A stretch of 64,000 bases of DNA from a phage, in NCBI GenBank assembly GCA_019326865.1, contig GCA_019326865.1_4101.1. One strand, 5' to 3'. Below, piece after piece: positions 7,745 to 26,222 of the stretch. The position numbers and the translations under genes are program-made. Each line of letters opens with the position of its first letter. The first letter of the stretch is position 1. The notes below the pieces were generated by a model. It was not told where the DNA came from. It did not search any database and was given only the letters and a program-made list of their open reading frames with translations.

Positions 7745-8221
7745 ATGTCAAACGAACTCACATTCACCAATGCACAAAAGATAGCAAAAGACATTATCAG
7801 GGTTTATAAATTCCTTGCGAATGTTACTGAAGATTTTTTAATTGATAAAAATAAAGTTATTAAGCGAAATGGATACCTTTCCTTTATGGATGGGTTGCTC
7901 TATAGTTCAGATGAGTCAGCTTGTAGTATTAGAGTACTTGATACTGTACCAAGTGGTGATTTTATTTCATACCATTTTCCAAGTTCAGATAAGTTCAAAT
8001 ACTACAATAGTATTCTCATAGCAGAAGACTTTGATACGATTGTAATTAACACTGAAGAAGAGTTCTTCCAGTACAGTACTGTGTACCCAGAGAGGATTGT
8101 TTTCAGTTCAGTGATTTACACTACCCTTAAAAATGAACTAAATTCCGATAGTGATCATTTCTACTTGGACCTGAATAATATCGATTGTATTATTGAGTAC
8201 ATGGAGAAAAATGGTTTATGA
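7745..8221 (+). CDS. hypothetical protein, FamA
   Basis: 158 aa; 'EEEFFQYSTVYPE...HFYLDL'; sigma70-like promoter at 7682-7711. Confidence 0.7.
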   Translation: MSNELTFTNAQKIAKDIIRVYKFLANVTEDFLIDKNKVIKRNGYLSFMDGLLYSSDESACSIRVLDTVPSGDFISYHFPSSDKFKYYNSILIAEDFDTIVINTEEEFFQYSTVYPERIVFSSVIYTTLKNELNSDSDHFYLDLNNIDCIIEYMEKNGL

Positions 8222-8721
8222 TTACTACAGAATATGATTACAATAGTGTCCTTGAATTTGCAGAAAATATATATCGTATTGCAAAGGAGTTCAGAAGTCC
8301 TGAGCCGTTTGGTGGTATGTTCGAATACGATGAGTTTAGTTCATCAAAAGGAAGACTTGCATTTACTAATGGTAGAGGTAATCAAATCTACACAGAGTAC
8401 TTTGATGACAATGACTTTCATCACAAAGCCGAATACATTTCATATTGCCCTGGGTCTGATTTGAAGATTCATATTGAAAGAGATATAGAAAATGTATTTG
8501 TTCCATATACTGATTTAGTCTTCATGTCAGAGGAAATGTACTTTCAGGAATCATTGATTCATGATACAAAAGTACTTAATACTATATTATTATATGGTAC
8601 ACTACTTAATCATTACAAATACAATCAAAGATTCTTTTTAGATTTAGTAGTATACCATCAATGTGTGGATTATTTGAATGCAAAATCAGACAACAATTCA
8701 GTACATGACCGATGGTTCTGA
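8218..8721 (+). CDS. hypothetical protein, FamA
   Basis: 167 aa; 'SEEMYFQESLIHD...RFFLDL'; ATGA overlap. Confidence 0.65.
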   Translation: MITTEYDYNSVLEFAENIYRIAKEFRSPEPFGGMFEYDEFSSSKGRLAFTNGRGNQIYTEYFDDNDFHHKAEYISYCPGSDLKIHIERDIENVFVPYTDLVFMSEEMYFQESLIHDTKVLNTILLYGTLLNHYKYNQRFFLDLVVYHQCVDYLNAKSDNNSVHDRWF

Positions 8722-19561: not shown

Positions 19562-20416
19562 TTGTATATGTTGGACATTTCAGATTTTCTTAATTTTAAA
19601 AAGTATTCAGTACTTGAACATATCAACGAATTTCTGAATTCCCCAACACCATTTGGTATCAGTACATCAGATTCATACGATGGATATAGAATCTTCCCAT
19701 GCAATGACTTTCAAATTTCTGTCAAAAAAGGTTTTACAAAAGAAGTTGCAATTCGTGATGTAGTAATGTATAGCGATTCTTCTATTTCTTACTGTCATGA
19801 TGTGAACAATTTTGAATCTCTTTCAACACCTAATTGTTCATACTACAAATCCCATGACACGATGATGTATAAAGAACAACATATCAATGGTGTTTCGTTC
19901 TACAAAACTAGCAGTGATAAATCATATACATCTAGAGATGATTTTGGAAAATACACATGTACTATGCACACGGATAATGAAAAAACAAATTACACTCATT
20001 CATTCGAGTCCAAATTCCAAGAGAGTGAAGTTTCAAATATCACTATACAAGAACAGGTTTCAGAAGGCATTGTATATCGTAGTACTGCATTCTTTCGCAT
20101 GAAAGATGTTGCCACAGGCAGACCAATGATGTACAATATTGACATATACATGAAAGGTGATATATCAGAAGTAGTGATTAGTACTGGTTATCGTGAAAAA
20201 TATACAGTTACAATGGAATCACCAGATGCATCGTTAGTTCACCTCTTTAACAATTTATATACATTCCAATTCGAACTTAGTTTAGACTACAATGAATATC
20301 AAATATTCGATATATTAAAAAGTAATATTATTAATAAGTTAGAATATTACTACAAGTTAGGTGGTAAGATGTGCATAGTTAATACTATGTTACATAACAT
20401 AAAAGAAACATTATAA
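19562..20416 (+). CDS. hypothetical protein
   Basis: 284 aa; GAGG RBS. Confidence 0.6.
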   Translation: MYMLDISDFLNFKKYSVLEHINEFLNSPTPFGISTSDSYDGYRIFPCNDFQISVKKGFTKEVAIRDVVMYSDSSISYCHDVNNFESLSTPNCSYYKSHDTMMYKEQHINGVSFYKTSSDKSYTSRDDFGKYTCTMHTDNEKTNYTHSFESKFQESEVSNITIQEQVSEGIVYRSTAFFRMKDVATGRPMMYNIDIYMKGDISEVVISTGYREKYTVTMESPDASLVHLFNNLYTFQFELSLDYNEYQIFDILKSNIINKLEYYYKLGGKMCIVNTMLHNIKETL

Positions 20417-20432
20417 ATCTGGAGGATTTGGT

Positions 20433-20726
20433 ATGGATACTAAATTCAAAATTATTTTTAAAACTAAGCCGTATATTCCACATACAGCAGAACGTTTTAT
20501 ACCACATGATGCAGAGGAAATTATTCATCAAGATGGTACAAAGTTATATCTAGTGCCATGTTCATATGAACGTGCAGTAGAAATGTTACTCATGAATTCT
20601 AAATTATGTACAAACAAGTACATTAGTTACTTATATAATGAACATATTTTAGATTTTAATGATGAAAATATGTTTATTCTGGCAATTGAAGATTTTAATA
20701 ATTGGTACAACATTATTAAAATCTGA
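20433..20726 (+). CDS. hypothetical protein
   Basis: 97 aa; GGAGG RBS. Confidence 0.5.
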   Translation: MDTKFKIIFKTKPYIPHTAERFIPHDAEEIIHQDGTKLYLVPCSYERAVEMLLMNSKLCTNKYISYLYNEHILDFNDENMFILAIEDFNNWYNIIKI

Positions 20727-20733
20727 TAAAATA

Positions 20734-20770
20734 TTGTGAACATATTAAATCTTTATGATATAATGTTCAC
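20734..20770 (+). promoter_or_regulatory. promoter with extended -10 TGATATAAT inside an inverted repeat
   Basis: TTGTGA 20734-20739; TATAAT 20759-20764; arms GTGAACAT 20736-20743 and ATGTTCAC 20763-20770. Confidence 0.45.
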
Positions 20771-20796
20771 ATATTTTTTTGATAATGGAGATATAG

Positions 20797-21183
20797 ATGA
20801 ATACAAGTTCAATCCTAAAAGCAATTGGTGGTGTTTTACTTATTGAAGTGAAAGGTGAACCAAAACTGTGCTGTTTGGAAGATATGAAGAATACAAAACA
20901 CTTCAGTACTGGTCAGATTTTTAATGCCATTCGTGTTCTAAATGATAAATCAATCGCTGATTATGGTAAAGTTTGGCCTGTATATCAAAACGCAGATGGT
21001 GATATCAGTTCTGACTGGAAAACCATTGAAGCAGTCCGACAAAGTTGTGATAGCGACTGGGACTTCATTGTAGAAGTATGTGACCAACTTCAAGAAGATG
21101 TACCAGAAATTGTGGAACGAAAGGAAGTTCTGGCAAATCTAGAAAAGTTCCGTCATGGAACACTACCATATGATACAATCTAA
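20797..21183 (+). CDS. hypothetical protein
   Basis: 128 aa; GGAG RBS; promoter with inverted repeat upstream. Confidence 0.55.
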   Translation: MNTSSILKAIGGVLLIEVKGEPKLCCLEDMKNTKHFSTGQIFNAIRVLNDKSIADYGKVWPVYQNADGDISSDWKTIEAVRQSCDSDWDFIVEVCDQLQEDVPEIVERKEVLANLEKFRHGTLPYDTI

Positions 21184-21233
21184 TCTACTTATTAAAAAAT
21201 AGCTAGTTAACATTATATAAAAAGGAATTTAAA

Positions 21234-21539
21234 ATGGAAGATAATGGAATGAAATTTGATATGTTTGAGGGTGTACCTGAGTTTGATTTTAACAAACTAG
21301 AAAATGGTGAAGAGTCAGAACTCGTTAGTGTTACACTTAAAGCAGATTCTAAGAAGAAATATTCATCAGCAGTACGTTCACGTTCACAAGAAGAATACGA
21401 AACATTTATTGAAAGTATTCATTATGAAACATTCCATCATGCAGATGGAACTCCATATGAAGTACGTGTAACAGTACTGAAGCCTGAAGTAAATCCAATG
21501 GAAAATCTACGTCCTGTTTACTGCTGGGCAAGTCACTAA
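21234..21539 (+). CDS. hypothetical protein
   Basis: 101 aa; AGGAA RBS; terminator downstream. Confidence 0.55.
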   Translation: MEDNGMKFDMFEGVPEFDFNKLENGEESELVSVTLKADSKKKYSSAVRSRSQEEYETFIESIHYETFHHADGTPYEVRVTVLKPEVNPMENLRPVYCWASH

Positions 21540-21547
21540 TAAACCAA

Positions 21548-21580
21548 AGGACGGGATTTGTTATTTCGTCCTTTTTTTTG
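21548..21580 (+). terminator. rho-independent terminator
   Basis: GGACG...CGTCC stem followed by eight T. Confidence 0.65.
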
Positions 21581-21591
21581 TCTGGAGATGT

Positions 21592-22446
21592 ATGAAACTT
21601 TATCTAATCGTTGACTACAATAAGGATTATGCTGGTAACTTCACCGAAGATTCGGATGGATATTGCACATCGACTAATGTCAATGTACGTAGCAGTAGTG
21701 CTCATGAACATGAATCTTGTAAAAATCTAAAAGATTTTATCACATACCGAGCATTTGAAAAGAACTTCTGCCGCAGTAGATATTCTAAGTTTGAGTACCC
21801 ATTAATTGATGTTCCTGATGAATTGATGTTCCAGCTAATGTTAACTGGAGTTCAAGATTATGATTATATTGCTTATAATCACATAACAAAGAAGATTTAC
21901 ATTGGAACATCAGTACACGATACTTCCATGTATGCATCATGCCCAGATGATCGAATGAAGCATAGAAATTCATACTATAGTGGATCAGTTGGTTCAAATA
22001 ATTCATCAAATAAAAATTCATTCTTTGAGTACGTGTATGATTACCATCACGAGAAAAAAGAACGTGAAGATTACTGTATAGAGATTGATAGTACTAATGG
22101 ATATGAAGACGTAAAAGAAGCTCTTATGCCATACATTATAGAAAAATACTACAAAGATTTTCAGTACTGTAGTAATTTTCTAATCAGAAATTCTATTCAA
22201 ATCGGTCGTCAATCCACTGCATACGCTATGTACTACAGTGATTCTCCAGTTGTAGCAGGAAATGAAAGGGGTGATATCCTACCAATTCCACGTGAAGATA
22301 TGACATTCATTTTTACATCTTTTATTGAGGATGATGAATTGTACGTTAAAAATAAGCATCGTTTCATGCCAAGTAAAATTGAGATTATTAGAAGCATCAG
22401 TGTTGATATATTAACCAATTTTACTGAAAAAACTGAATATAACTGA
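21592..22446 (+). CDS. hypothetical protein
   Basis: 284 aa; contains 'DVPDELMFQLML'; strong terminator downstream. Confidence 0.6.
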   Translation: MKLYLIVDYNKDYAGNFTEDSDGYCTSTNVNVRSSSAHEHESCKNLKDFITYRAFEKNFCRSRYSKFEYPLIDVPDELMFQLMLTGVQDYDYIAYNHITKKIYIGTSVHDTSMYASCPDDRMKHRNSYYSGSVGSNNSSNKNSFFEYVYDYHHEKKEREDYCIEIDSTNGYEDVKEALMPYIIEKYYKDFQYCSNFLIRNSIQIGRQSTAYAMYYSDSPVVAGNERGDILPIPREDMTFIFTSFIEDDELYVKNKHRFMPSKIEIIRSISVDILTNFTEKTEYN

Positions 22447-22463
22447 GACAAAATAGAAGTTAA

Positions 22464-22472
22464 TGATATAAT
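22464..22472 (+). promoter_or_regulatory. extended -10-like TGATATAAT element
   Basis: exact motif 5 nt upstream of terminator hairpin; functional status unclear. Confidence 0.25.
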
Positions 22473-22476
22473 GTGA

Positions 22477-22506
22477 GGTGACAGTATATACTGTCACCTT
22501 TTTTTA
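22477..22506 (+). terminator. rho-independent terminator (22-nt perfect palindrome)
   Basis: GGTGACAGTATATACTGTCACC then TTTTTTT. Confidence 0.8.
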
Positions 22507-23123
22507 ATCCTGAAAGGTTCCTATAAGGAAATGATTAAAAGCCTAATCCACTCGAAAATGTAGAGGGTAGATGAGTAGTCCTTTCAGTACGAACAGCAGA
22601 TGAAACCCGTTAGATGATGGCATAGTTTGAACCACTCACGGCAATGCGGCTGTATAAAGAACTCCAATAGGATAAAGAGAGTTCCTAGATAGACATATAA
22701 GGATCGCACCTTACCAATTATCTAAGGGAGATTTCATAAGAAATATGCGGTCGGAATTATACAATATAGTTGCGTCCAAATTTTGTGAAATCAAATACAA
22801 GTACTGGTCATATGGTATTTGTATTATGTGTCGGGATGTTTAAGACCGACGACCGTTGCTACAAGAACCGCGATAGAGAGAAACAGAGCAACCCGCTTTC
22901 GTCTCGTAAGAGAATTCGTGATATGAACTATGTGAAGGCCACCAGCGTCAAACTTTTTTGTTCTTTCCCCTGCGGGGGGATGAAATATGCTCAAGCAAAC
23001 CTCGTCAATATTAATTAAAAGACTTTATAATACTTGTAGAATTGTACATGCACCGCATGGAGAATTCTACTGATGTTGATGTAATCAACATCACGTATAT
23101 TCATTGATGTTTCCATAGGAATA
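22507..23123 (+). other. GC-enriched non-coding island (candidate structured RNA or foreign remnant)
   Basis: no convincing ORF; sampled 60-nt lines 42-48 percent GC vs about 27-33 percent in flanking genes; bounded by terminator and palindrome. Confidence 0.4.
23071..23093. repeat. perfect inverted repeat TGATGTTGAT-gta-ATCAACATCA
   Basis: 10-bp arms, 3-nt spacer, 30 nt upstream of CDS 23124; no T-run. Confidence 0.6.
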
Positions 23124-23669
23124 ATGATGGCATTTATTAAAAAAGAAAAAACTATTACTTATAAAACTTTGAATTTTGATGATTGTATTAATCAATCACA
23201 GGACGAAAATATTTTTACTGGATATGTGGTTATTAAAGAAAAAGGATGCATTTCTTATATAAAGGAATTGCAAAATGGCATTGAAGTCACTTCAGTTAAA
23301 TTACTTCCTACACAAAAACCAACAATATCAAAAGCCCAGTACGGTAATTATTTCGAGGAAAGATACAGTAATAATTTAATAAGTGTTAAAGCTCATATTG
23401 TAAAAGGAGAACTAGAAGGAGAATATAGAAAATTCAACCCACAAGGAAAATGTGTTTGGGTTAAATACTACAATTCAGGTGTTGATATAACATCTGAAAT
23501 TATAGAGTTCTTAGGGTTGTCATGTACACCTGAAACTCTTCATGACTACAAATTTAATACTGAAGAAGAGTTTAATCTGATGATGCGTTATGGATCACAT
23601 TTTAAATTTTTATATGAATATAACGTTGACAGTAGTATTTTTGATAAAATAGTACATAACTGTCTATAA
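23124..23669 (+). CDS. hypothetical protein
   Basis: 181 aa; AGGAA RBS; palindrome just upstream. Confidence 0.55.
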   Translation: MMAFIKKEKTITYKTLNFDDCINQSQDENIFTGYVVIKEKGCISYIKELQNGIEVTSVKLLPTQKPTISKAQYGNYFEERYSNNLISVKAHIVKGELEGEYRKFNPQGKCVWVKYYNSGVDITSEIIEFLGLSCTPETLHDYKFNTEEEFNLMMRYGSHFKFLYEYNVDSSIFDKIVHNCL

Positions 23670-23685
23670 CAAAAGGATTTATATA

Positions 23686-24207
23686 ATGTCGAAGAAGGAT
23701 ACTTCGAATAAGCACTCAGTTCATTTCAGTACTGGAAAAGATAACTGGACAACCCCAAAAGATTTTTTTGAAGATTTAGATGAGTTATGGGGATTTACAC
23801 TTGATGCTGCTTGTGTAGATGAGACTGCATTGTGTGATAATTTTTTCACTCCAGAAGATGATTCACTGTCACAGGATTGGGGAAATAATATAGTTTGGTT
23901 GAATCCACCATATAGTGACTTAAAAACATGGTTATCTAAAGCTGTAGATGCATATAATAACGGAGCAACTGTAGTTATTCTTGTACCCTCAAGAACCGAT
24001 ACAATTGCTTTTCAGGATTATGCTGCTAAAATATGTGATTGTATTTGTTTTATTAAGGGAAGATTGCGATTTGGTATACCAGAAGAACCCGATAAGAAAA
24101 CTGATTCAGCACCATTTCCTTCGTGTCTGATAGTTCTGGATAAGTACTTAACCACTGCTAAAATCAATTGTCTTAAATCTCTCGGATTGGTGATGAAGAA
24201 TTTATGA
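23686..24207 (+). CDS. DNA methyltransferase, phage Dam-like (N6-adenine type by NPPY motif)
   Basis: 173 aa; catalytic 'WLNPPYSD' (D/N-P-P-Y/F) motif; size typical of small phage MTases. Confidence 0.7.
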   Translation: MSKKDTSNKHSVHFSTGKDNWTTPKDFFEDLDELWGFTLDAACVDETALCDNFFTPEDDSLSQDWGNNIVWLNPPYSDLKTWLSKAVDAYNNGATVVILVPSRTDTIAFQDYAAKICDCICFIKGRLRFGIPEEPDKKTDSAPFPSCLIVLDKYLTTAKINCLKSLGLVMKNL

Positions 24208-24737
24208 AAGAAACATGTATATTATCATTTATGAGATGTAACCCAGTCCACAATGGACATGGTTTAGTTTTTGAAAAGGCCAAAACATTACAAGAACAGT
24301 ACAATGCTGATTTAAAAATTTATCTAAGCACTAGTACTGACAATATAAAAAACCCACTACCACCTGAACTAAAAATGTATTATACAGAGGGATTCTATCC
24401 TTCAGTGCAAGAGAACATCTACACAGAGGACAATCTATTTGATATAATGAGAGAACTGGATGGAAAGTACTTAGATGTTCTCTTCATATGTGGTTCTGAC
24501 CGTATTGATTCTTTTCAGAAAACCCTTGACACTTACAATGGGAAGTTGTATAATTTTTGTAATATAAAAGTAATTCAAGCAGGTATTGACCGCCAATCAA
24601 GTCGATATAGCTCAACACAAATGCGTAAGTTTGCCAAAAATGAAGATTTTGATAGTTTTCGTGAGTTTTTGCCTGGAAATGACGAGAACTTAAAAATTCA
24701 ATTATTTGAAGATGTTATAAAATACATGAGGAAATAA
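24204..24737 (+). CDS. HIGH-motif nucleotidyltransferase (NMNAT/PPAT-like)
   Basis: 'SFMRCNPVHNGH' (HxGH) and 'SSTQMR' (ISSTxxR-like) motifs; ATGA overlap with MTase. Confidence 0.65.
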   Translation: MKETCILSFMRCNPVHNGHGLVFEKAKTLQEQYNADLKIYLSTSTDNIKNPLPPELKMYYTEGFYPSVQENIYTEDNLFDIMRELDGKYLDVLFICGSDRIDSFQKTLDTYNGKLYNFCNIKVIQAGIDRQSSRYSSTQMRKFAKNEDFDSFREFLPGNDENLKIQLFEDVIKYMRK

Positions 24738-24739
24738 TT

Positions 24740-25033
24740 ATGTCAGTACTGTTCAAAACTAATCCAGTACTTTGGGAACAAAATGAACAATCAGGATTTC
24801 GTTCCATCCATGTTGAATACAAAGGTAATACAGTAGTTGCAATTATTGCTAACAAAACTCTAGGAAAATGGACCGCACAGGTTGTTCCTATGGGCTATTC
24901 TTATACATCTGATGAGGTTCAATTTTTAGCTGAACTTTATCGTCAAGTTCCTTTTATTATTAATGTGTTAGAAGGCAATGATACATTATCACATGAAGAT
25001 GTGATTGATTTTCTTGGAAACTTACATGTGTGA
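24740..25033 (+). CDS. hypothetical protein
   Basis: 97 aa ORF. Confidence 0.5.
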   Translation: MSVLFKTNPVLWEQNEQSGFRSIHVEYKGNTVVAIIANKTLGKWTAQVVPMGYSYTSDEVQFLAELYRQVPFIINVLEGNDTLSHEDVIDFLGNLHV

Positions 25034-25313
25034 TGAAATAAATCTTACAGGATATTTTTTACAAGAATCTATGATCAAATTTAGTGAACATTTCCCAGTA
25101 CTGGATGGTATCGAAATGTGGCATGTCAAACCACTGTTTCACACTTTCAGTAAAGAGCACAAAATGTTATTGACTGAAGCGAGTAAATCAAATAACATAT
25201 GTGAAATCAAAATTGGTGTAAATGTCTATAAAGGGATGGTTATCTTTTTTGACAATAACAGCAACTACTTTTATATTGTTAAGGAGCAATACGTTGACAA
25301 ATACAAATACTAA
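25005..25313 (+). CDS. hypothetical protein
   Basis: 102 aa; alt in-frame ATG at 25026. Confidence 0.45.
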   Translation: MIFLETYMCDEINLTGYFLQESMIKFSEHFPVLDGIEMWHVKPLFHTFSKEHKMLLTEASKSNNICEIKIGVNVYKGMVIFFDNNSNYFYIVKEQYVDKYKY

Positions 25314-25902
25314 TACATACTTCCGTTATCTTCGTTTAGGTCTTTCCCTTCGACCAATCCGTGGAAAGTGTGATTCACTCGCAGACCTTGACTATGCATA
25401 TGCATTACATCATGAGGGTGTACAGTATGTATTGGGTGATTATGGTGAATTTGAAGAAACAAATGACAGTACTGGAATTAATGCTGGTGTAGAAAATCTC
25501 AACAACATTGCAAACAGTTCGCGTCATGATATTGTGTTACAGATTCAAAACTTTATTGAGCAACACACTGGTAAACGTGTTTGGTGTTATGTCGGAACTG
25601 ATGCACAAATGTCTATTTCATTCGGTAATGATGACGGATATGTCGCACAGCTAATTATGGATTTTGAATCTGAAGAGAAGTTTTTAGAATTTAAAGATAA
25701 AATCATCAAATCACTCGTTGATATGGGTATCCCAGAAGATAAAATGCCAGAAGTTCAAAACATTGATGAATTTGTTTTGATTCCATCTGATGAGAAATAC
25801 GATGCTATGTTTTCTGCTCTTAATATTCCAGGAGTCATTGTGGAGTACTTTGATGATGGTGATGATAGCATCTATATCGATTTAGATGACGATGATGAAT
25901 AA
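25294..25902 (+). CDS. hypothetical acidic protein
   Basis: TTG start 7 nt after AAGGAG (25281-25286); Asp-rich C-terminus 'DLDDDDE'; terminator downstream. Confidence 0.45.
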   Translation: MTNTNTNTYFRYLRLGLSLRPIRGKCDSLADLDYAYALHHEGVQYVLGDYGEFEETNDSTGINAGVENLNNIANSSRHDIVLQIQNFIEQHTGKRVWCYVGTDAQMSISFGNDDGYVAQLIMDFESEEKFLEFKDKIIKSLVDMGIPEDKMPEVQNIDEFVLIPSDEKYDAMFSALNIPGVIVEYFDDGDDSIYIDLDDDDE

Positions 25903-25906
25903 TATA

Positions 25907-25935
25907 TAGCCCGACATAAGTTCGGGCTATTTTTG
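25907..25935 (+). terminator. rho-independent terminator
   Basis: TAGCCCGA-CATAAGT-TCGGGCTA then TTTTT. Confidence 0.75.
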
Positions 25936-25946
25936 TAAGGGGAAAT

Positions 25947-26222
25947 ATGAATTATAAATTTCTACAATATACATACACAATATTATTTGATTTACATCAC
26001 AATGGACGATATATCAACACAATACGAGAAAACACATTTACTCATATGTTATGGATTGATTACTTAGAAACGATTCGTGCATATTTTGTTAATACTGAGA
26101 TAATCATTCGTGGTAAAAAACAGAAGATTCAACATGTTAATAGTTATGGTGGTAAATTAACTCTAACATTTACCGATAATAATACTAATGAAATGTGTTG
26201 TATCGAGTTGGTGAACATATGA
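25947..26222 (+). CDS. hypothetical small protein, FamB
   Basis: 91 aa; 'KFLQYTYTILFDL' N-term and 'GGKLTLTFTDNN' C-term. Confidence 0.55.
   Translation: MNYKFLQYTYTILFDLHHNGRYINTIRENTFTHMLWIDYLETIRAYFVNTEIIIRGKKQKIQHVNSYGGKLTLTFTDNNTNEMCCIELVNI

Follow-up and report, generated by a model that had tools for sequence, protein, structure and literature searches.

To our knowledge, very few RNAs of bacteria or phages that exceed about 400 nucleotides (nt) have a pseudoknotted and highly conserved fold, and nearly all of those that we are aware of proved to be ribozymes, cores of ribonucleoproteins (RNPs) or RNA-only assemblies. ROOL and GOLLD are large (>450 nt), multi-helix, pseudoknotted RNAs with long invariant loops, which occur in phages and integrated elements. 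We analysed a stretch of 64,000 nt of phage DNA (NCBI GenBank assembly GCA_019326865.1, contig GCA_019326865.1_4101.1; the whole stretch is referred to as the window). The gap between two of its genes, at positions 22507-23123, almost certainly holds the gene of a functional structured RNA on the + strand, which resembles ROOL and GOLLD in all of these respects. The likeness is one of resemblance and not of homology, as the window RNA matched neither of the two covariance models. ROOL and GOLLD come from Lactobacillales and from rumen or lake samples and often adjoin transfer RNA (tRNA) genes, whereas the window RNA belongs to enterobacterial jumbo phages and has no tRNA in any fetched locus of its family. 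Unlike ROOL and GOLLD, it is present as four to five diverged paralogs per genome.

Other described systems share further features with this locus. ColE1 RNA II (about 555 nt) and the transcripts of the T4 origins oriF and oriG are likewise promoter-driven, ~500 nt long and marked by a G-rich stretch near the 3′ end, and the T4 origins are also dispersed in several copies per genome; the window RNA differs from them by a far more elaborate and conserved tertiary structure and has no sequence similarity to them. Pseudo-ToxI and ToxI offer the example of one structured RNA that a lytic phage shares with a locus of its host, chromosomal or mobile, that is associated with defence, as is observed here with chromosomal islands. 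ToxI is an array of 36-nt repeats, whereas the window RNA is a single fold of ~500 nt, and in the present case the transfer appears to have run from phage to island. In the jumbo phage PA5oct, RNA sequencing revealed four free-standing transcripts of 236-619 nt that lack an open reading frame (ORF), ncRNA001-004, two of which are abundant throughout infection (PMC7318152). Homology to these long non-coding RNAs was considered as possible expression evidence and was ruled out, given that the family profile gave no match to ncRNA001, ncRNA002 or ncRNA004 with nhmmer (PA5oct loci compared: L054:8263-8498, L054:21951-22401 and L358:1617-2235). The PA5oct RNAs are non-homologous, which means that further long non-coding RNAs, as yet uncharacterised, exist in related jumbo phages.

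The window is DNA of an Asteriusvirus (121Q/PBECO4-like) jumbo coliphage, and its positions 20000-26000 are 98.5% identical to phage UE-S1 and ~92-93% identical to 121Q, PBECO4, phAPEC6 and G17. The gap is flanked by ORFs of 284 amino acids (aa; 21592-22446) and 181 aa (23124-23669), the latter followed by a Dam methylase gene and then by a cytidylyltransferase-like gene. A blastn search of 50,697 phage records recovered the gap DNA from 71, all of them Rak2-like jumbo phages, with Escherichia, Klebsiella, Salmonella, Erwinia, Yersinia, Serratia, Pectobacterium and Cronobacter as hosts as well as one ‘Xanthomonas’ Mimasvirus. No match was obtained in plasmids or in deposited phages outside the jumbo clade. 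The conserved core (~22540-23010, + strand) retains 65-76% identity across all Rak2-like genera; outside Asteriusvirus, the blastn alignments span ~22537-23015 at 70-76% identity. The synteny is the same in Asteriusvirus, Eneladusvirus, Mimasvirus and the Klebsiella and Salmonella jumbo phages, and the 12 fetched genomes all show the order ~280-aa gene, ~700-base pair (bp) gap, ~180-aa gene, Dam and cytidylyltransferase. In these relatives, the gap carries no annotation or is occupied by small ORFs whose positions and strands do not agree. The first-pass annotation, made from the sequence alone, had considered a horizontally acquired fragment. This does not agree with the distribution of the element, which is ancestral to the clade of jumbo phages as a whole and keeps its synteny throughout it.

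The same annotation had proposed a comparative alignment as a check for covariation, and the covariation obtained was very strong. From 36 sequences aligned with MAFFT (alignment A1), RNAalifold predicted 64 base pairs, 37 of them with compensatory double changes. A scan of column pairs added two pseudoknots (PK1 and PK2), and the full model comprises 76 pairs in 17 helices. In this model, 96.9% of the cells were paired, against 40-42% when the partners were slid by 1-3 columns, and the covariation score was 0.482, against 0.06-0.10 for the slid controls. Compensatory changes on both sides were observed in 45 of the 76 pairs. On four of the five measures used, the observed value was out of reach of all 500 shuffles; on the fifth, ‘further pair types’, two of the 500 attained it. 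Among 117 aligned rows, G-U occupied 665 cells and A-C 79 (~8:1), and the folded strand is therefore the + strand; the variation of helix H13, which is restricted to C-G to U-G changes, also points to a + strand RNA. On average, 95.8% of the pairs are kept in 81 sequences (80 unique full-length members and the copy from an Escherichia coli island), in a family whose pairwise identity falls as low as 48%.

The fold comprises a 5′ domain, an insert of variable length, a 3′ domain with a three-way junction, a linker and a 3′ module (Table 1), with long invariant single-stranded stretches between the helices. In PK1, which joins the loop of H8 to a strand beyond the junction, all seven pairs change on both sides and 99.6% of the cells are paired; six of the pairs form in the window copy. 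In PK2, 100% of the cells are paired, and the sole variable pair switches between C-G, U-A and A-U. By comparison with ROOL and GOLLD, loop-to-strand pairings of the PK1 kind could, in principle, also form between molecules. A candidate closing helix between GATGAG (22570-22575) and CTCGTC (23001-23006) is 95% paired and invariant, and shows no covariation. A pairing that closes the insert (GAT/ATC, 22730-22732 with 22790-22792) was also flagged. The leader position holds the AATCCTG motif and a hairpin of varying sequence in all copies, and most of the other paralogs have an extra hairpin and a U-run within the linker.

The RNA was compared with known families. In Rfam 15, no family reached its gathering score anywhere in the 64-kb window, permissive settings gave no credible match to 22300-23300 at E ≤ 10, and eight loci that hold other paralogs gave none at E ≤ 1. 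The families covered by this negative result include RNase P RNA, group I and II introns, transfer-messenger RNA (tmRNA), 6S, GOLLD, ROOL, OLE, HEARO and raiA. ARAGORN detected no tRNA or tmRNA in the window or in 32 paralog loci. The RNA family is absent from Rfam 15. Together with the covariation, these negative results support the earlier suggestion of a novel structured RNA that is neither a tRNA nor a group I intron. A few motifs resemble those of E. coli RNase P RNA by eye (ACAGAG..CAAACCGCC and CAUAAGG), and this candidate was rejected as the permissive Rfam scans gave no match. No description of the RNA was found in the genome papers on these phages or in the openly accessible literature, sequence strings included, and the main text of a catalogue of viral RNA candidates, as distinct from its candidate lists, does not mention it (PMC10690425).

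Coding readings of the gap found no support. As the first-pass annotation had stated, the ~620 bp contain no convincing ORF; indeed, nothing credible lies between the stop codon at 22446 and the ATG at 23124. The 82-aa ORF in this interval, which had been considered implausible, has no Pfam match and is not conserved in homologues, and the longest ORFs of other family members differ from it in place and strand. A decayed protein gene, raised earlier as a possibility, would likewise be at odds with the finding that no ORF is conserved. A small peptide that would start at the conserved GGGGGGATGAAA was also rejected, given that the spacing from there to the following conserved block changes by lengths not divisible by three.

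The RNA gene is preceded by a promoter whose 16-nt spacer ends in TG and which reached 10 of 12 matches, TG included, in a consensus scan. It belongs to the class [T/G]G[A/G][A/G]AC[A/G]-N-TGnTATAAT, with TGAAACG and GGGACA as -35 forms, and the -35 variant and extended -10 (TGnTATAAT) precede every phage paralog and every island copy. When the + strand of the window was scanned with the pattern [T/G]G[A/G][A/G]A[C/T]N...TGnTAYAMT, five instances were obtained (22444, 32415, 36299, 55385 and 56484), compared with 0.2 in shuffles. The divergent RpoD-like ‘TGAAACG’ promoter described in phages CBB and GAP32, where it is found mostly upstream of DNA-synthesis genes, is of the same class (PMC5259590). 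The transcript is predicted to start at ~22479, within the 5′ arm of the terminator-like hairpin that ends the upstream gene. This hairpin, noticed in the first reading together with its T-run and present as described, sits between the -10 and the RNA core, and its stem covaries among orthologues of the window copy (type a, the syntenic paralog); it is found only in this paralog type. The -10 stops 2 nt short of the terminator stem, an arrangement peculiar to the type-a paralog. In 121Q, a gene for a phage RNA polymerase sigma factor lies directly upstream of paralog d, and this factor might read the -35 variant. A conserved promoter with TCGTCA as its -35 was considered and discarded, the -10-like hexamers downstream being inconsistent among the copies.

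The most conserved 20-mer of the RNA (AGAAACnGnnCAACCCGCTT, window 22879-22898) was found several times per jumbo genome in IMG/VR, and the ~500 nt around these copies align to the window element at 62-77% identity. In 121Q, the four copies lie at 90.3, 192.8 (the orthologue of the window copy), 247.5 and 326.7 kb, all on the + strand. In other genomes, three or four distinct copies were retrieved by the pattern-limited search, and BLAST gave four to five places per record; within the window, no second copy of the family was detected by blastn, pattern or nhmmer. A stricter pattern of two blocks contributed 74 more loci from metagenomes, giving a total of 80 unique full-length members. Loose scans of the collections (bacterial and archaeal contigs; a 5′-domain pattern) returned mostly chance matches: of 120 bacterial or archaeal loci obtained from the loose pattern, none were true members by nhmmer, which confirmed only further jumbo-phage copies among the new loci from the 5′-domain pattern. 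The neighbours of the four paralogs differ. Paralog b of G17 stands alone on the + strand between an endonuclease VII gene and a small ORF, both on the minus strand, and is followed by a terminator, with no same-strand gene downstream; paralog c lies among unrelated small genes, and paralog d follows the sigma-factor gene. The isolation of paralog b, the differing neighbours and the promoter before every copy show that the RNA gene is independent and not a leader.

Intact copies were also identified in enterobacterial chromosomes. Among 5,426 complete E. coli genomes, blastn found one copy in each of two chromosomes, namely LR-29-1 (NZ_AP027515; L352:11996-12554) and NZ_CM130020, and the E. 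coli island copy scored 383 bits with nhmmer. This copy is part of a ~10.7-kb island located between ffs and ybaA. In the island, a tyrosine integrase is interrupted by IS3; a resolvase and hypothetical genes are also present, as is an mSLOG-DUF4326 / DUF488-N3a / DuOB trio corresponding to the PADLOC candidate defence system PDC-M45. A second island of ~11 kb, inserted between rlmI and yccX, occurs in Enterobacter, Klebsiella, Raoultella and relatives (L353-L356:3578-14464). It starts with a large serine integrase, three unknown genes, the RNA (7965-8516) and a CI-like repressor on the opposite strand, and continues with a winged-helix protein, a 286-aa membrane protein of no known family, LprI, a resolvase, an unknown gene and KwaB/KwaA (Kiwa). 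The GC content of this island is 35.4%, against 56.8% in its flanks.

The island copies retain the phage-type promoter and 92-96% of the consensus pairs. Their nearest relatives are copy b of Serratia phage BF (80.6% identity) and jumbo contigs (~83%), and this proximity to particular phage paralogs therefore suggests transfer from phage to island. Searches of the island proteins against phage databases (tblastn, PHROGs) gave no link to jumbo phages. The rlmI-yccX island may be directed at jumbo phages, either as a satellite or as a defence element.

Taken together, these results are best explained by a large free non-coding RNA gene that works through its fold, a reading to which we assign a probability of about 0.6. 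The RNA would be ~530 nt long, from the predicted start at ~22479 to the end of the core at ~23010, and would be transcribed from a phage-specific promoter class that in CBB is tied mainly to DNA-synthesis genes. It would then work as a free molecule by virtue of its three-dimensional fold: as a ribozyme, as a decoy, or as the scaffold or partner of a conserved protein from the phage or its host. It would work neither as a coding sequence nor as the leader of the next gene. The islands would have borrowed it to interact with jumbo-phage infection. Action through the fold is favoured because as much tertiary structure and invariant unpaired sequence is conserved as in ribozymes, RNP cores and RNA-only assemblies, and because the gene is autonomous and portable; that the RNA acts in trans in this way is close to an even call, or slightly less. 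A more specific proposal, which we hold only tentatively, is that the RNA represents a class of its own among large RNAs, catalytic or self-assembling and comparable in rank to RNase P, group I/II introns, ROOL or GOLLD. Rak2-like phages would need it, in the form of four to five specialised paralogs, and small AT-rich integrative islands of Enterobacteriaceae would have pirated it together with the phage-type promoter, to serve them as decoy, sensor or replication handle.

Several observations weigh against a free RNA acting through its fold. In the type-a copy, the terminator hairpin stands between promoter and RNA, and no terminator was found 3′ of the window RNA, so that the downstream operon may be part of the same transcript. 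Across the family, no protein gene recurs beside every copy, and no transcriptome for this phage clade was found in the literature. An RNA acting in trans gives the islands no obvious reason to hold an extra copy, unless theirs is a decoy or poison variant. The energy of the fold computed from the single sequence does not stand out (z = -1.34); single-sequence folding is uninformative here, and the case therefore rests on the comparative evidence. Finally, a transcript of a replication origin would also fit the promoter class, the G6 run that never varies and the dispersal of the copies.

Such an origin transcript is the strongest rival, although we regard it as unlikely. Much like ColE1 RNA II or the R-loop origins oriF and oriG of T4, the structured transcript would form a persistent RNA-DNA hybrid near the G-run and AT-rich DNA and prime leading-strand synthesis, the four or five copies would be origins of the 350-kb genome, and the islands would be amplified by the phage replisome in a form of origin piracy. 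It would explain the copies, the promoter, the G-run and the islands. The four copies of 121Q are dispersed, 55-112 kb apart and co-directional with transcription, a dedicated promoter lies directly upstream in all copies, and paralog b adjoins SbcCD-like and endonuclease VII genes. GGGGGGAT is invariant although its C-rich partner varies, AT-rich DNA follows the core, and the length from promoter to G-run (~500 nt) is near that of RNA II. Over the ~11 kb covered, the islands hold no recognisable replication gene of their own, so a cis-acting origin would benefit them, and the promoter class itself was reported in CBB mainly upstream of DNA-synthesis genes (PMC5259590). What an origin does not explain is the elaborate fold: the known T4 origin transcripts need no conserved fold, whereas here conservation extends far from the putative hybrid site, over 17 helices, two pseudoknots and numerous invariant loops, as is typical of ribozymes and RNP RNAs. 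The AT-richness downstream is, moreover, the background of the genome.

The islands also raise the possibility that the RNA had its first role there, for example as an antitoxin-like or regulatory component of an abortive-infection module that includes the adjacent membrane protein, and that the phage copies neutralise this defence in the way that phage pseudo-ToxI counters ToxIN. Every island type seen pairs the RNA with proteins of ~260-330 aa that have a transmembrane N-terminus and no Pfam family, and the islands carry Kiwa and PDC-M45 as defence cargo. This origin on the host side is improbable, given that in the phages the paralogs are ancient, keep their synteny and occur throughout the clade, whereas the islands are rare (2 of 5,426 E. 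coli genomes), and their copies have the phage promoter type and nest within the phage diversity (80.6% to BF copy b, ~83% to jumbo contigs). The position of the window RNA, directly upstream of same-strand genes without a terminator between and in a conserved type-a synteny, could be that of a cis-regulatory leader (riboswitch-like or an attenuator) of the operon of 181-aa, Dam and cytidylyltransferase genes; the other paralogs precede unrelated genes, paralog b precedes a terminator and no same-strand gene, the island copies converge on a repressor gene and, in the orthologues, the gene after the RNA is preceded by a separate promoter, which makes a leader very improbable. Least plausible of all is that no RNA is involved, as the GC content above the genome mean and the 82-aa ORF might be taken to indicate. 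The gap would then be the remains of a protein gene, a fragment gained by horizontal transfer or an element that acts as DNA, for example an array of protein-binding sites or a structure of single-stranded DNA. No ORF keeps its position or strand in the family, Pfam gave no match here to the ORF or to the genes beside it, and the indels in the alignment break the frame, not being multiples of three; only a folded + strand accounts for the compensatory changes and for G-U exceeding A-C by 8:1, and every copy has a correctly oriented promoter. The readings as a leader, a DNA-level element or a decayed gene are thus contradicted by the observations.

The family comes from culturable phages of E. 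coli, Klebsiella and Salmonella (121Q, PBECO4, phAPEC6 and RaK2), which makes it directly testable. The old paralogs in each genome, the common phage-specific promoter and the intact copies in defence-carrying chromosomal islands provide handles on its function. If the pirated-RNA proposal is true, the islands would be the first satellites of, or dedicated defences against, jumbo phages that act via a shared structured RNA. The annotation of ~70 deposited genomes, which leave the RNA loci empty or hold spurious small ORFs there, can be corrected.

Table 1. Coordinates of the RNA gene, its structural elements and the adjoining features in the window.
Feature	Position	Strand	Description or basis
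Promoter of the RNA gene	22445-22472	+	-35-like GAGACA 22445-22450; -10 TATAAT 22467-22472
Terminator-like hairpin and T-run	22475-22506 (stem 22475-22500)	+	Ends the upstream 284-aa gene
5′ leader	22507-22539	+	Conserved AATCCTG 22506-22512; variable hairpin 22518-22521/22527-22530
5′ domain	22540-22728	+	H1-H7; invariant GAAACCCGTTAG, CACGGCAATGCGGC, GATAGACATATA, CTAAGGGAG
H1	22548-22553/22563-22567	+	GAAAA loop; compensatory changes
H2	22576-22577/22588-22589	+	Alignment
H3	22593-22597/22649-22653	+	Compensatory changes
H4	22607-22610/22638-22641	+	Alignment
H5	22659-22664/22679-22684	+	Compensatory changes
H6	22698-22701/22710-22713	+	Compensatory changes
H7	22714-22715/22726-22727	+	Alignment
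Variable inter-domain insert	22729-22793	+	A1 columns 250-334; length and hairpins vary by paralog, some without insert
Spurious 82-aa ORF	22770-23018	+	No Pfam match; not kept in homologues
3′ domain	22794-22927	+	H8-H12; invariant ACGACCGTTG and AGAAACnGnnCAACCCGCTT
H8	22794-22805/22814-22825	+	12-bp hairpin
PK1	22807-22813 with 22921-22927	+	Pseudoknot; 7-nt H8 loop with ATATGAA
H9	22829-22834/22846-22851	+	Alignment
PK2	22855-22859 with 22888-22892	+	Pseudoknot; GTTGC with GCAAC (H11 loop)
H10	22869-22873/22916-22920	+	Three-way junction
H11	22876-22880/22896-22900	+	Three-way junction
H12	22903-22905/22910-22912	+	Three-way junction
Linker	22928-22960	+	Conserved CAnCGTCA, pyrimidine-rich run; A1 columns 509-578
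3′ module	22961-23010	+	H13, invariant GGGGGGAT, tail ending in invariant CTCGTCA 23001-23007
H13	22966-22970/22975-22979	+	G/C hairpin, probably longer
Downstream hairpin	23036-23070	+	GTAGAATT...AATTCTAC; 3′ of core; sequence
Perfect palindrome	23071-23093	+	Outside the conserved core; then -10-like TATATT 23096-23101, next gene 23124

The remaining features of the gap were compared with the first-pass annotation. The hairpin CCCCTGCGGGGGG at 22967-22979 and the perfect palindrome are both present. The reported GC enrichment is real and modest: the region has a GC content of 38.9% and the core (22540-23010) one of 41.6%, against 32.8% for the whole window, so that the 42-48% given earlier was too high. 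The region falls in the top 4% of 617-bp windows (about +1.9 standard deviations), and one 200-bp window within it peaks at 45%. The ‘diverged repeat’ proposed at 22518 and 22681 proved to be a coincidence of two unrelated structural pieces, with no such likeness in the other family members; the first copy is the variable 5′ hairpin, and the second forms the 3′ arm of a covarying helix, after which comes the invariant GATAGACATATAAGG. The annotation had also taken the terminator and the palindrome as the limits of the element. The promoter is found upstream of the terminator and the core stops near 23010, short of the palindrome, so neither marks a boundary.

The RNA gene of UE-S1 (L357:240-990) carries a tandem duplication of 55 bp in the H3/H4 segment, corresponding to 22598-22652 of the window. 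Both tandem copies carry the variants of paralog b (...GATGTGGGCATAGTTTGAACCCC...) and not those of the window copy. The duplication could be a gene conversion between paralogs or an assembly artefact.

Downstream of the core, the hairpin at 23036-23070 may be a 3′ extension of the transcript. At the site of the palindrome, the orthologues have a different hairpin, which overlaps a second promoter of the same class (TGGAACA-N15-TG-TATAAT). The other paralogs (L013, L020-L025, L040-L053) and the island copies share hairpins located 60-230 nt 3′ of the core, with loops of the (A)ACGnAGTGA type; the window copy has diverged and is without these motifs. Some full transcripts may reach about 700 nt. 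In many such copies, a common GAAAATTC...GGCAAATC module precedes a bidirectional terminator, and the island copies and one further locus (L019) carry related but different variants of this module (GAAATTCCTGGC...GACAG).

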